A stretch of 64,000 nucleotides of DNA from a virus (taxonomy: Duplodnaviria > Heunggongvirae > Uroviricota > Caudoviricetes), in IMG/VR virus record IMGVR_UViG_3300045988_141797; one strand, given 5' to 3'. Positions 50,529 through 56,337 of the stretch are shown here, piece after piece. The notes under the pieces were generated by a model. That model saw nothing but the letters and a program-made list of their open reading frames with translations, searched no databases and was not told where the DNA came from. A program made the position numbers and the translations under genes. The first letter of the stretch is position 1. Each line of letters begins with the position of its first letter.

Positions 50529-50750
50529 ATGCAATCCATTAACTTCCGTACCGCGCGTGGCAACCTTTCTGAAGTGCTCAACAATGTTGAAGCCGGGGAA
50601 GAGGTTGAAATCACCCGCAGAGGCCGTGAGCCAGCAGTAATTGTCAGCAAGGCTACTTTCGAAGCCTACAAAAAAGCGGCGCTGGATGCCGAATTTGCAT
50701 CCCTGTTTGACACTCTGGACTCCACCAACAAGGAACTGGTTAACCGATAA
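50529..50750 (+). CDS. phd: Phd antitoxin
   Basis: [39 protein letters not shown]... matches my memory of P1 Phd almost residue for residue. Confidence 0.85.
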
Positions 50751-51130
50751 TGAGGCATATATCACCGGAAGAACTTATTGCGCTTCATGATGCGAATATA
50801 AACCGCTACGGCGGCCTGCCTGGCATGTCAGATCCGGGCAGGGCAGAGGCCATTATCGGGAGAGTCCAGGCCAGAGTTGTGTACGAAGAGATTACCGACC
50901 TTTTCGAAGTCTCCGCCACCTACCTGGTGGCTACAGCGAGAGGGCATATATTCAATGATGCCAATAAGCGTACCGCGCTAAACAGTGCGCTGCTATTTCT
51001 ACGCCGTAACGGTATACAGGTATATGATTCTCCCGTGCTGGTGGAACTTGCGGTGGGGGCTGCAACTGGTGAAATCCCCGTATCTTCAGTAGCGGAAAAA
51101 CTACGTGAACTATATGGTTCCAATATTTGA
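50750..51130 (+). CDS. doc: Doc toxin (Fic-fold kinase)
   Basis: [17 protein letters not shown]...[15 protein letters not shown]; stop/start overlap with phd. Confidence 0.85.
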
Positions 51131-51165: not shown

Positions 51166-52272
51166 TCACTCAATGATTTTTTCTGCTGTCAGCCAGCTAA
51201 TTTCTTGCCTGTCTTTCGGCGGTTTTAGCATGTGGGCGTATTCAGCGACATTCTCCCACGGAATTGTTTTTGCCCACTCAACGATAGCATTGTGATCTGC
51301 AGTGAAGAGTGGAATGGTGTGCGATTTCAACCACTCTAATGTTGTAACGCCATGTTTTTTGGCGTGGTGCTGTGCATGATGCCGGGCTATCACTAGTAAT
51401 GGCATTGTCCATTCACTACCATCAGGCATCGTAAAGCGCATTGTTTTCGGCATATCTGATTCAAGAACAGCCTCCCGAATACCAGGGAACTCACCAAGAA
51501 CCATACGACGGTAGTAATCGCCGTTTTTACCACCATGCGATTTTGCGAACTCATCGAAATAATCTTGAGTGAGAAGAGGTGATTCTTCTGCGTTCAGCTT
51601 AATAGCCGTATAAATACCACATGGATTTTCTTCAGTTTTTGCTCGATCATGATGGGAATCGTAAAAGTGTCCATGTTCCTCCTCTGGAGGAGCAGACGTC
51701 AAAAGTATACGTGAGTCGCCACTAACTAAAGATGCTCTTAACATCCCGAATAGCCGATAGCTTACCAGAGCCGCGTCCATAACAATGATCAGAAGATGTT
51801 CACCATAATACCCGGCTACATCTTCCTCATAATTTAGGCGATATGGTTTAATTTCGCAGCCCCAAGATTTTTGGTAACGATGATTGAGGCCATTTTGAAC
51901 GAGTTGAAAATACTCTCCCAGCAATGGCGCTTTTGTATTAGCTTTCTCCCAATACATGTTCATGAGTGAAAGAGTTACCATTGCATTACGCTCAAAGTCT
52001 GGAGCGACTATGACCGTTTTAGACTCAGGCATCAGGATCGTATAAAGGATACAAATGATAGCCAGAGCAGACTTATGCCCTATCCCATGCGGTGTGGTAA
52101 CGCTGACTGCTGAACCTTTTTGTTGAATCGCCTCAACAATTAGCTTTTGCTGGTGGGTTAACTTAACACCCATCAACTCTTCTGCTGCTAATGCCCAGTC
52201 ATGGCTATATTTGCTTACCAGCTCTCTCCACTCTGGTAATTCGGTGATGTTTTTAGGCGTCAGCATCAGCAT
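51166..52272 (-). CDS. degenerate paralog of the large terminase ATPase domain, no nuclease domain
   Basis: colinear with the N-terminal 300 aa of the 57607-59115 terminase; Walker A interrupted (TPHGIGHKSA vs SGHGTGKSS); Walker B acid lost (LLIIVMDAA vs LLLILDEAS); unrelated C-terminal 100 aa. Confidence 0.6.
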   Translation of the reverse strand: MLMLTPKNITELPEWRELVSKYSHDWALAAEELMGVKLTHQQKLIVEAIQQKGSAVSVTTPHGIGHKSALAIICILYTILMPESKTVIVAPDFERNAMVTLSLMNMYWEKANTKAPLLGEYFQLVQNGLNHRYQKSWGCEIKPYRLNYEEDVAGYYGEHLLIIVMDAALVSYRLFGMLRASLVSGDSRILLTSAPPEEEHGHFYDSHHDRAKTEENPCGIYTAIKLNAEESPLLTQDYFDEFAKSHGGKNGDYYRRMVLGEFPGIREAVLESDMPKTMRFTMPDGSEWTMPLLVIARHHAQHHAKKHGVTTLEWLKSHTIPLFTADHNAIVEWAKTIPWENVAEYAHMLKPPKDRQEISWLTAEKIIE

Positions 52273-53059
52273 CCTCCGCTACCTCTGCCTCCACATCTGC
52301 CGCGACTTCATCGGACTGTTCTTCTTTGGCCTGTTCTGCAATCGCCGCACGGCATTTCGCCCTGGCTGTAGCGATGGCCTCAACTTTCACGTCATTAGGA
52401 ATACTTGAGGTGACATACATATCCAGTTCTTCAGCACGGAATACTGTTTTGTCCAGGAATTCATCAAGCATCCAGGTTAAGGAAAAGTCGCAGGAAATCA
52501 GCTCTACTTCGCCTTCCGCGCCGTTTGGGAAATGGATAAACATCTGCTTGCCCAAGCCAAGCACGCGACAAGCAGCCATCATTACTGCAAGTTCCAGGTC
52601 TTTGTTTTCACCTGCTACTGGTTGATCCACACCAGTAATAGTGCCGTTCAAATGGATATTATATGGCTGATATTTAGAGATGCGTTCTACACGCCATGTG
52701 CCGGTTAAGGTTCCCTGGCGGAAGATTATTGGCGTGACCGAAAGCGACAGCTCTCGAATGAGTTGTTGTGCTATGGCTGGGTCATACAGGGGATCTAACG
52801 CGATGCATCCATAAGACTGCGCCAGTTCAAACAATTCTTCCTGTGTGCACTGAATGTCTCTTGCCGTAATAAAACGTCTGACTCCCGTTTTTCCGTCACG
52901 CCAGATAGCAATGCCATTCTCACTATCTAACTCTTCGTCTAAACCCAGGTATGTAAGGATGGTTCGCTCAATGGTGGCAAAGGGCAGGGACATATCATCG
53001 TTTACATCCACCAGCAGGCCGTTACGCAGGCGATATTGAATGTTTTTGGTATTTTCCAC
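52253..53059 (-). CDS. hypothetical protein with acidic C-terminal tail
   Basis: 268-aa ORF, overlaps downstream gene by 20 nt. Confidence 0.3.
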   Translation of the reverse strand: MENTKNIQYRLRNGLLVDVNDDMSLPFATIERTILTYLGLDEELDSENGIAIWRDGKTGVRRFITARDIQCTQEELFELAQSYGCIALDPLYDPAIAQQLIRELSLSVTPIIFRQGTLTGTWRVERISKYQPYNIHLNGTITGVDQPVAGENKDLELAVMMAACRVLGLGKQMFIHFPNGAEGEVELISCDFSLTWMLDEFLDKTVFRAEELDMYVTSSIPNDVKVEAIATARAKCRAAIAEQAKEEQSDEVAADVEAEVAEDADADA

Positions 53060-53065
53060 GTTAAA

Positions 53066-53716
53066 TCACTCCACAACAAACCAGTCACAGGCCAGTAAAT
53101 CATCCACAGACGGCAACCAAACGCTGTCCATATTTTGTGCATCTTTCAATACAAAATGGTCACCATAAGGAACGTGAATGCCGTGTAAATTGACGCTTCC
53201 AGCGAGAACTAACCAGCAGAATTGCTTTTCGCCTTTCCACTCGCGTCGGGCAACTTTCTTGCCTTCCTTCAACCACATTAGCGCATCAGAGAAGTCGGCT
53301 GCTTCAAGGTCGATTTCTTCTTGCTGGGTGGTGATGCCACCAGCAGAAATAGTTACGCTCCCAGTAAGATTAATCATCACGCCGTTGTCATCCGTAATGA
53401 TGACCGTGGTTCCATTTTTGGAGGCGTCGTTAACCAGGCCATAGCATTCCTCAAATGGTTTCTCCGGGGCATAGAACAGATAACCGTTTTCATAAACGAT
53501 CAGATACCCGCCAGTTTTTGGTCGGTGTTTTTGTAAAAACATTGCGTCAACACAAACTGTTGCCCCTTTTGGTTCAACGAGTTCGATGCAGCCCCAAAGT
53601 GGGGCATCAGTTACTCCGAAAATAACAACATTTTTGATTTTCGATGCACTAACGTTTTTGTGAGCTTTGTATTTGGGAAGGAACTTAAAAAGCTCTTTCG
53701 TGGGCATGTTATTCAT
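53066..53716 (-). CDS. two-domain protein with C-terminal DUF2829 (Tad2-like) domain
   Basis: C-terminal 75 aa DFSDALMWLKEGKKVARREWKG...VWLPSVDDLLACDWFVVE matches the DUF2829 pattern. Confidence 0.5.
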   Translation of the reverse strand: MNNMPTKELFKFLPKYKAHKNVSASKIKNVVIFGVTDAPLWGCIELVEPKGATVCVDAMFLQKHRPKTGGYLIVYENGYLFYAPEKPFEECYGLVNDASKNGTTVIITDDNGVMINLTGSVTISAGGITTQQEEIDLEAADFSDALMWLKEGKKVARREWKGEKQFCWLVLAGSVNLHGIHVPYGDHFVLKDAQNMDSVWLPSVDDLLACDWFVVE

Positions 53717-53730
53717 AGCCTTTCCTCTAC

Positions 53731-54225
53731 TTAAAACTTTGCGTACTGAAGCGGTGTACGCTTGATTTCAATGCGGTCTTCCGATGTGCTACCAAAGCCA
53801 CCAGCACCTCGCTCTGTTTCATCGAGTTCATCAACTTCTACCAGCGATACCGGTTCAACACGCTCAAAAATGCCTTGCATGACCGCCATTCCTGGCTTGA
53901 GGCAAACGCCTTCACCACCGGGATCTGTAATCAGTTTTGCTTTGATTTCACCGCGATAATCGGAGTCGATAATTCCTACGCAGTTAGCCAGGCGCGTATG
54001 CTTTTTGCAGCCCAATCCGGAACGAGGATAAAGTTTCAGACACCAGCCAGGAGGGATCGCCATAGCGAGGCCGGTATGCACCCACCAGCTTGAGGAAATA
54101 GCGCCGTTGCTATTGATACCTGGCGTTATTTCAACAGCAATAAAATCCATCGCCGCCGATCCGGCGGTGGCGTAAACGGGGAGTCTTGCCGCCGGATGAA
54201 GGCGTTTCACTTTCACGTTAATCAT
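53731..54225 (-). CDS. dut: dUTP diphosphatase
   Basis: dUTPase motifs AGSAAMDF, RSGLG, GIIDSDYRGE, ERGAGGFGSTS. Confidence 0.85.
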   Translation of the reverse strand: MINVKVKRLHPAARLPVYATAGSAAMDFIAVEITPGINSNGAISSSWWVHTGLAMAIPPGWCLKLYPRSGLGCKKHTRLANCVGIIDSDYRGEIKAKLITDPGGEGVCLKPGMAVMQGIFERVEPVSLVEVDELDETERGAGGFGSTSEDRIEIKRTPLQYAKF

Positions 54226-55105: not shown

Positions 55106-55130
55106 GATTGTTAGAAAATTAATTTATGAA
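55106..55130. promoter_or_regulatory. operator site
   Basis: GATTGTTAGAAAATTAATTTATGAA upstream of the 55051 operon, overlapping the Cre-like gene 3' end. Confidence 0.5.
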
Positions 55131-56152
55131 TCCATCAGGCGACTATTTGCACCAACGGATGCCCCGCTACGGCGCAAATATCGCATAAGTGTTTCGGGCT
55201 TTTTCCATGTGCCTTCCTGCATGATCTCGACCATTGACACCTGTTTCTCAGCCATATCAATTGCCGCACCAACACGCGCACTATGGCCTGTCCACGTCCG
55301 GTATCTTCCCTTGTTCGGCGTGGCATCTCGTTTGTTCAGCAACCCCCAGGCATCGCTGAATATTTTCTCCATTGCAGGTGCAGTAAGGGGCGTTGTCGTG
55401 ATTCTGGCCTTATTACTGCGGTGTATTGGCGGGAATAGCACCGCGTCCGGATGTTCTCGAAGTCCGGACACCTCCAGCCAGTCGTTCAGTACGGCGGTAG
55501 TGTAACGAGAAAGCACCTTATCAAGTCCGGCGGCGGTCGTGATGGTCTTCGTGTGTGAAATATGCAGCGTTACAGTGTCACCTGTTTGGTCCAGATCTCC
55601 GACGCGGATGCGCGAGATTTCTGACATACGCATCAGGGTATTGTATGCCACGAAGAGAAACGCCCGATTGCGCAGGTCCACCAGCCGCTCGGAACGGGAC
55701 AGCAACACGTCGAGCAATTTCAGATCATCCCACCGCAACGGTATAGCCTGGCCTGTTCGCTCGCCTTTTTCCGTTGCCGCTTCGCGCCGGATGCGCCGCA
55801 TGGCCAGAGACACACTTTTATCGTCCGACAGCGGCGGGAGGCCACATTGCGAAAGCAGCATGTTAAGCATGGCATAGTGCTTATCAATGGTGGTCGAAGC
55901 CAGATCGGCCTCATGCAACTGGAGAAGATACTCGCGGGCCATTTCCGGCGTAATCGGGAACCAGGGGCGCTGGCGCGAGTTACACCACCGCGCCCAGGAA
56001 TGAAACACCAGACGGAGATCACGAAGTGTATTTGGGGCATAAGCTCCCTGGTCGTTCATGAACTGCATAAAGTTTTTTGCAGCTTCCTGGTATTCGGTGC
56101 CAATATCGCGCAGAAAACCACCAGAACCGCCGGAGATAACTAGTTCACCCAT
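55124..56152 (-). CDS. Cre-like tyrosine site-specific recombinase
   Basis: colinear with P1 Cre from memory (WTGHSARVGAA, RIRVGDL, MRRIRRE, conserved C-terminal Tyr) but clearly diverged. Confidence 0.8.
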   Translation of the reverse strand: MGELVISGGSGGFLRDIGTEYQEAAKNFMQFMNDQGAYAPNTLRDLRLVFHSWARWCNSRQRPWFPITPEMAREYLLQLHEADLASTTIDKHYAMLNMLLSQCGLPPLSDDKSVSLAMRRIRREAATEKGERTGQAIPLRWDDLKLLDVLLSRSERLVDLRNRAFLFVAYNTLMRMSEISRIRVGDLDQTGDTVTLHISHTKTITTAAGLDKVLSRYTTAVLNDWLEVSGLREHPDAVLFPPIHRSNKARITTTPLTAPAMEKIFSDAWGLLNKRDATPNKGRYRTWTGHSARVGAAIDMAEKQVSMVEIMQEGTWKKPETLMRYLRRSGASVGANSRLMDS

Positions 56153-56303
56153 GAAACTATTAAACCTCTATATACAGATAACGCTACGTGAAAAATAGAA
56201 AACTGACAGGGTAGTTATAAGTTAATTTTCAAAATTCAAGCCTTTGATTCGAGGCATGATTTTTCATCCTTGTCAATACTGCCTGTTTACTGGAGATTAT
56301 AGC

Positions 56304-56337
56304 CTAACTTTAAATAATGCCAATTATTTAAAGTTAG
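56304..56337. other. lox-like recombination site (13-bp inverted arms, 8-bp asymmetric spacer)
   Basis: CTAACTTTAAATA-ATGCCAAT-TATTTAAAGTTAG, perfect arms, about 150 bp upstream of the Cre-like start; arms share TAACTT...ATA with loxP. Confidence 0.65.

Follow-up and report, generated by a model that had tools for sequence, protein, structure and literature searches.

The number of known viral sponges, which serve phages in immune evasion, is growing fast, and the homologues of Tad2 have been reported to target 3'cADPR, His-ADPR, N7-cADPR, cyclic dinucleotides, and cCMP/cUMP. In SPO1 Tad2, 3'cADPR is held by W25, N26, W73, and D79, and S76 helps to position a water molecule (Yirmiya et al., preprint). 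In HgmTad2, an insertion between beta2 and beta5 forms a pocket for cyclic dinucleotides.

Proteins that combine two sponge modules have been documented repeatedly (10.1101/2025.07.12.664507). Examples are Acb4-Tad2 from Pasteurella phage Pm86, Tad2-Sequestin, and Acb4-Sequestin (Ab09 gp59). Sequestin itself was found via a query for Pfam families that are fused to Tad2 or Acb4 (10.1101/2025.07.12.664507). A domain without a Pfam model would escape this type of query because the query used Pfam families.

RyR Tad, which is gp68 of Pectobacterium phage CB1, sequesters gcADPR with its C-terminal RyR-like domain. The N-terminal domain of gp68 alone has no activity against type I Thoeris, and in the crystal it forms a domain-swapped dimer through strand beta1 (bioRxiv 10.64898/2026.06.04.730250).

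Among phage-plasmids, an automated screen has reported Tad2 in 93% of the D6 type and 56% of the P1 type (10.1101/2025.09.12.675607), and Tad2 in these elements is already in the literature as automated annotation. Here, we describe a Tad2 gene with an unusual partner domain in a window of 64,000 nt (the whole stretch of viral DNA that was analysed; IMG/VR record IMGVR_UViG_3300045988_141797). Based on its sequence and on structural models, the gene is proposed, with a probability of about 0.6, to encode a two-module counter-defence protein that combines a Tad2-type sponge for a TIR-derived ADP-ribose signal with an accessory OB module.

The OB-Tad2 gene and its neighbours

The OB-Tad2 gene is an ORF on the minus strand (53066..53716) that starts with ATG and encodes 216 aa. 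Its translation is identical to the one from which the earlier note had quoted ...DFSDALMWLKEGKKVARREWKG...VWLPSVDDLLACDWFVVE. The protein carries the NCBI name 'DUF2829 domain-containing protein'. According to the ORF list and the domain searches, it consists of an N-terminal OB-fold domain (aa 13-96; 53429..53680, minus strand), a variable beta-rich linker (aa 97-134; 53315..53428, minus strand), and a Tad2-like (DUF2829) domain (aa 135-216; 53069..53314, minus strand). A Shine-Dalgarno-like stretch, GAGGAAAGG, was read from the sequence at 53719..53727 on the minus strand, and its GAGG core lies 7 nt upstream of the ATG.

The region shares 82% DNA identity with Escherichia phage D6, a P1-related phage-plasmid, and the element is a D6-like phage-plasmid of E. 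coli. The gene belongs to a tightly packed minus-strand string in the order of a cre-like recombinase gene (55124-56152), two small ORFs, dut, OB-Tad2, an isaA-like gene, and a PacB-like gene (51166-52272, 368 aa), and the string converges on doc (50750-51130). The upstream neighbour is the dUTPase gene (53731..54225, minus strand; PF00692, E = 3.5e-13; TIGR00576, E = 6.2e-34), which is separated from the OB-Tad2 ORF by 14 nt. The downstream neighbour (52253..53059, minus strand) encodes an IsaA-like protein of 268 aa with an acidic C-terminal tail (phrog_2326, E = 4.6e-125). The gene is thus placed between dut and the isaA-like gene, near the cre-like gene and doc, and is not encoded with head genes.

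The best sigma-70-like promoter match (TTGGCA-16-TATAAT; 11 of 12 matches in a consensus scan) was identified upstream of the cre-like gene at 56296..56323 on the minus strand. In the same scan, promoter-like sites in the region were no more frequent than in shuffled sequence. Because these sites do not exceed the shuffles, a seven-gene minus-strand operon with its putative start at the 56296..56323 match and its end at 51166 is read from the tight or overlapping gene junctions, and such an operon is possible.

The C-terminal domain belongs to the Tad2 family

The assignment of the C-terminal 75 aa to DUF2829/Tad2 in the earlier note was borne out by the HMM search, by sequence matches to solved chains, and by the fold. 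The Pfam model PF11195 ('Tad2-like') matches aa 141-215 with an E-value of 2.8e-18 and a score of 66.7 bits (the cut-off is 25), which is far beyond chance, and the alignment spans positions 2-73 of the 73 profile positions. The phmmer search against solved chains identified ModTad2 (9eib, E = 7.5e-11) and SPO1 Tad2 (8sme, E = 5e-6), and SptTad2 and HgmTad2/AcrIIA7 were also matched. The Foldseek search with the AlphaFold2 model matched Tad2 structures with a probability of 1.0 and E-values of 1e-6 to 1e-4. The target-normalised TM-scores were 0.6-0.86 to 9eib, 8v3e, 8sme/f/g, 8wje, and 8kbi. The pLDDT of the Tad2 domain is 74-88; the full-length model has a pTM of 0.43, and the linker and the full-length arrangement are poorly modelled in it.

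The domain shares with the Tad2 sponges of SPO1 (8SME/8SMF), ModTad2 (9EIB), and HgmTad2/AcrIIA7 (8KBI) the same Pfam family and the same architecture of alpha1 and an antiparallel sheet. The identity over about 80 aa is 38-42% to ModTad2 and 30-36% to SPO1 Tad2. The characterised Tad2 proteins are single-domain proteins of 74-104 aa whereas the window protein has an N-terminal extension of 134 aa. The beta2-beta5 insertion also differs, with about 15 aa in the window protein compared to 24 aa in SPO1 Tad2 and 41 aa in HgmTad2. A cyclic-dinucleotide pocket of the HgmTad2 type is unlikely because the insertion has only about 15 aa.

The window protein retains four of the five residues that are the main ligand contacts in SPO1 Tad2; its W160, W200, S203, and D206 align to W25, W73, S76, and D79. 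Among 31 homologues, W160, W200, and D206 are invariant and S203 is nearly invariant, and the alignment of homologues also exhibits a conserved alpha1 helix, DFSDALMWLKEGKK. The fifth contact, N26 of SPO1 (phosphate/hydroxyl contact), is K161 in this allele, and most relatives keep N. On the adenine side, I63, T65, D67, and H71 of SPO1 align to L190, D192, Q194, and S198. The ligand may differ from that of SPO1 Tad2 because of the change from N26 to K161. The target is unreadable from the sequence because Tad2 homologues differ widely in specificity.

The N-terminal region consists of an OB-fold domain and a linker

The earlier note had described an N-terminal domain of about 140 aa with no recognisable motif. 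This region is really two parts, which are the OB-fold domain and the linker. It is correct that the N-terminal domain has no model in Pfam, NCBIfam, and PADLOC, where no match was found, but the domain belongs to a very large OB-fold family. The PHROGs search gave families of unknown function only, the search against solved sponge structures gave no match, and the matches of the BFVD fold search were all uncharacterised proteins of viruses.

With aa 1-135 as the query, an exhaustive phmmer search identified 1,750 clusters (50% identity) at E<=1e-3 that aligned at about aa 13-95. The search with the OB profile identified 4,445 clusters (90% identity) at E<=1e-5, and these are mostly stand-alone 'hypothetical' proteins of 85-100 aa. 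The consensus of the family is EMPRYKCHKEVWALKI...KHKPQVGGYYVVYxDGYKSFSPAxAFExGYTRI with 21-22 invariant positions in 62 sequences. The window protein keeps the invariant residues P14, Y16, H19, K20, K26, H64, GGY69-71, Y75, G78, Y79, P84, F88, E89, and Y92. It is a divergent member in which 12 other conserved positions are substituted.

The AlphaFold2 model of the OB domain alone is confident (pLDDT 89, pTM 0.79), and its fold resembles the OB fold of phage L Dec (6E3C), which was the sole solved relative in sequence and fold searches. The phmmer alignment to Dec extends to aa 126. The linker aligns weakly, over about 30 aa, with the start of the Dec spike via an I-x-LTG-x-VT-x-SA stretch, and its model confidence is low (pLDDT 44-49). 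The linker segment is variable or absent in relatives; at least two alternative linker alleles exist among them, and unrelated, partly helical segments replace it in homologues. Dec does not have H19, K20, H64, Y75, Y79, and P84 of the OB family, and these residues are therefore not demanded by the fold.

The stand-alone members are acidic with a median pI of 5.4. Because of this acidity, it is unlikely that the OB fold serves for generic binding of nucleic acids.

The N-terminal domain of RyR Tad belongs to the same superfamily. The comparison of gp68 aa 2-70 with the OB profile gave an hhalign probability of 95.3% and an E-value of 2.3e-8, and the N-terminal domain of the window protein is therefore in the same superfamily as a domain of a validated sponge. 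Both proteins have this N-terminal domain followed by a C-terminal sponge module. However, the C-terminal module of RyR Tad is RyR-like (PF02026) whereas that of the window protein is Tad2. The N-terminal domain of gp68 is also shortened, without the central hairpin at about aa 28-62 of the window protein, and RyR Tad forms dimers, in contrast to the tetramers of Tad2 proteins. In CB1, the fused OB copy lies in an anti-signalling hotspot. The suggestion of the earlier note that the N-terminal domain may add or change ligand specificity is speculative. In the only experiment on a homologous domain, that of gp68, the domain alone was inactive against type I Thoeris and had a dimerising, domain-swapped structure. 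A second, independent activity is possible in view of the repeated fusions to sponge modules.

OB domains are fused to five families of sponge modules

The composite proteins Acb4-Tad2, Tad2-Sequestin, and Acb4-Sequestin resemble the window protein in that a sponge is joined to a second small phage module and in the type of locus, which is an accessory or an anti-defence one. They differ in that their partner is a validated sponge whereas the partner in the window protein is an uncharacterised OB-fold domain; by Pfam, NCBIfam, PADLOC, and solved structures, only one of its two modules belongs to a validated sponge family.

Among 144 representative OB members compared to Pfam, eight are fused to Tad2, five to Acb4 (PF13876), five to Sequestin (PF21825), two to the Acb2/Tad1 hairpin (PF24729), and one to RyR (PF02026). 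The best 120 OB profile matches include 12 fusions to Sequestin, one to the hairpin, and one to RyR. The OB profile was also used to collect 80 viral contigs, in which ten OB ORFs are fused to a sponge domain. A sponge gene was found at less than 4 kb from the OB gene in four more loci as well as at one of the fused-ORF loci (L051), which brings the total to 14 loci. All ten sponge matches that were checked were confirmed by Pfam. One locus (L034) has a Tad2 gene directly downstream of the OB gene. Locus L051 has a Tad2-Sequestin gene (465-953) immediately upstream of an OB-Acb4 gene (980-1711), so that four modules are encoded by two adjacent genes.

The enrichment of sponge genes in the neighbourhood of OB genes was also considered as evidence and was dropped since the control loci anchored on dUTPase were confounded. 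Of these 80 control loci, 34 are D6-like elements and 46 are distant. Seven of the 46 distant loci, from closely related gut phages, have a Sequestin (PF21825) gene directly after dut. The argument is consequently carried by the fusions and not by neighbourhood enrichment. The dut-then-Sequestin loci (L131 4395-4709, L136 4473-4958, L170 4442-4687, and four more) mirror the dut-then-OB-Tad2 order of the window.

Single fusions of the OB domain to DUF4406 (nucleoside deoxyribosyltransferase-like), DUF5662, DUF551, DUF2158, and an AlpA-like domain were also observed among P0100-P0243. Many OB members of 125-175 aa have C-terminal extensions without a Pfam match, and these extensions could hide further modules.

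The OB fusion partner has been noticed earlier in passing only (bioRxiv 10.64898/2026.06.04.730250). In the supplement of the Sequestin/Lockin paper, as far as it was accessible, the OB motif occurs only as a fusion partner in one homologue table. The motif was not found in the searchable text of the supplements of the sponge-diversity paper, where absence is weak evidence.

Natural alleles differ in the OB module

The reference gene orf114 of phage D6 (L001 3771-4211, 146 aa) corresponds to the window gene minus an in-frame segment of 237 nt. The deletion removes aa 21-99, the OB core, between short CAAAAA repeats. Tad2-only alleles of 146 or 149 aa are found in six of the 34 D6-like viral loci. 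Since D6 and these six loci have lost the OB core, the elements can propagate, at the least, without the OB module, and it is not needed for the Tad2 fold. The alleles with and without the OB core, as in the window and in phage D6, are a ready-made natural comparison.

In the full-length alleles of E. coli and Salmonella, the OB domain, the linker, and the Tad2 insertion with the C-terminal part vary independently. The identities across the OB domain, the linker, the Tad2 insertion, and the C-terminal segment are 98%, 100%, 27%, and 73% in one allele (P0015) and 59%, 53%, 67%, and 100% in another (P0025). The junction IDLEAADFSDALMWLKEGKK is invariant amid these independently varying segments. 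At least three alternative Tad2 insertions that differ in length were identified. The independent exchange of segments suggests the modular exchange that is expected under an arms race.

The size of the OB family was not found stated in the literature searched, the description of Tad3-Tad8, which bind Thoeris proteins directly and one of which could be the OB family, lying outside that search. Neither the homology of the family to the Dec OB fold, nor its fusion to five sponge families, nor the natural OB-deletion alleles were found stated in the literature searched.

Proposed function and alternative explanations

Of the proposed two-module counter-defence protein, the domain identities, the folds, the conserved residues, the pattern of fusions, and the genomic surroundings were observed, whereas the oligomeric state, the ligand, and any OB activity are inferred. 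The Tad2 module would most likely assemble into the homotetramer of its family. The pockets of this tetramer, lined by W160, W200, S203, and D206, would sequester an alarm molecule derived from ADP-ribose and made by TIR proteins. The candidate ligand is of the 3'cADPR/gcADPR type, and His-ADPR or N7-cADPR are possible as well. With the signal sequestered, Thoeris-type effectors would never be switched on. By analogy with RyR Tad, the OB module probably pairs as a domain-swapped dimer, and it may add stability or avidity, or a second counter-defence activity.

A more far-reaching and tentative explanation is that the OB module is an autonomous counter-defence domain, which could act as a sponge for another signal or inhibit a defence protein directly. 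In that case, the fusion would have two specificities, as Acb4-Tad2 and Acb4-Sequestin do. Most family members stand alone at about 90 aa, which would not be expected of a pure helper domain. Many of the invariant positions are polar or aromatic (Y16, H19, K20, K26, H64, Y71, Y75, Y79, E89, and Y92), and the absence of H19, K20, H64, Y75, Y79, and P84 from Dec indicates that the fold does not require the latter set. The fusion to five sponge families invites the same fusion-partner reasoning that led to Sequestin. In the three phages that were checked, the stand-alone copies lie in small accessory-gene arrays, two of them beside regulators, and the hotspot position of the fused copy in CB1 points in the same direction. 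The mildly acidic character of the members is also unlike that of typical nucleic-acid-binding OB folds. However, the N-terminal domain of gp68 alone was inactive against type I Thoeris, and the OB domain of the window protein is itself divergent at 12 conserved positions. A large structure-guided screen for oligomers with positively charged pockets did not report the OB family in the accessible part of its account. That the family, with its thousands of clusters, binds an immune signal or a defence protein outside those assayed, and that the window gene is bispecific, is thus held to be possible and rather doubtful. Under this explanation, the gene would encode a natural bispecific inhibitor, and the phage-plasmids of E. 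coli and Salmonella would exchange each of its two halves independently of the other. The fusions to five sponge families and the many stand-alone copies make the OB domain a concrete candidate that is cheap to test, and fusion-partner reasoning has already given Sequestin.

It is improbable that the DUF2829 domain is not a sponge here and serves as an AcrIIA7-like anti-CRISPR protein, as a regulator, or as a partner that binds nucleotides for the adjacent dUTPase. Weak matches were obtained to AcrIIA7, which has a DUF2829 domain (E = 0.005-0.012), and phrog_643, 'transcriptional regulator', was matched with an E-value of 1.7e-6. The nearest solved relatives are nevertheless Thoeris sponges and not AcrIIA7, and AcrIIA7 itself is HgmTad2, a sponge for gcADPR and cyclic dinucleotides. 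The CRISPR systems of E. coli are type I, and the species is not known to carry type II-A systems. The genes dut and DUF2829 are adjacent in the window and fused in some E. coli elements (P0062). However, dut is also found beside Sequestin genes in unrelated phages, and a shared accessory locus fits this arrangement equally well. The conservation of the ligand-pocket residues also argues for a sponge.

The relationship to Dec raises the explanation that aa 1-135 are a Dec-like decoration unit, with an OB 'leg' and a trimeric beta spike, that places Tad2 on the virion. The alignment to Dec continues beyond the OB fold and takes in the beginning of the spike, the linker is beta-rich and of low confidence in the monomer model as expected if it folds only on oligomerisation (for the Dec spike, see PMC6449081), and a homologue in the record of one phage (Dolphis) carries the label 'capsid decoration protein'. 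This explanation is very improbable, since Dec binds to the capsid as a trimer and its gene lies among structural genes whereas the window gene, with its Tad2 C-terminus, lies in an accessory string by dut, the cre-like gene, and doc and not in a head module; most OB relatives are bare of a spike and homologues have the linker swapped for unrelated, partly helical segments; a trimeric spike would be hard to square with a D2 Tad2 tetramer; Dec is without the invariant polar residues of the OB family; an external capsid site would give a sponge no reach to intracellular signals; and the Dolphis annotation stands in an array of small hypothetical genes.

Distribution of the gene and related elements

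The assembly index has the exact protein in 806 blocks, and the fetched examples are contigs of about 89-94 kb with the same gene order. The identical protein (P0001) has 105 member sequences. The gene matches 226 plasmid records and 210 of 5,426 complete E. coli genomes (about 4%), and 209 of the 216 places in these genomes are on plasmids. The proposed activity of the two-module protein would bear on persistence in TIR-immune hosts, given that the gene is carried by about 4% of complete E. coli genomes. The element belongs to phage-plasmids that are linked to clinical lineages.

The isaA-like gene follows the OB-Tad2 gene in D6-like elements (L006-L009, and D6, in which the annotation notes a similarity to P1 isaA). 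In the P1-like phage Ro157c2YLVW, the same position is occupied by a hypothetical protein of 260 aa, which by its position may correspond to IsaA. The IsaA-like protein had no matches in PDB, Pfam, NCBIfam, and PADLOC, and it may work together with the OB-Tad2 protein or have a counter-defence function of its own.

The 368-aa product of 51166-52272 is a paralogue of the terminase large subunit PacB with 37% identity to the first 270 aa or so of P1 PacB, and its Walker A motif is apparently degenerate. Its gene is inserted between the isaA-like gene and doc, and it is absent there in D6 and in the four fetched places L006-L009. Some P1-like phages have a 49% identical copy of this gene.

In P1-like phages, the OB-Tad2 gene follows lyz and ssb, where P1 has IS1-associated 'isa' genes. 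In the P1-like phage RCS47 (L011 2501-2950), the OB-Tad2 gene is interrupted by IS26. The dUTPase-Tad2 fusion (P0062) of some E. coli elements has 241 aa. In one E. coli homologue of 306 aa (P0024), the annotation places a phage tail-fibre repeat (PF03406) at the N-terminus, before the Tad2 domain, and this architecture may be an artefact of gene calling or recombination.
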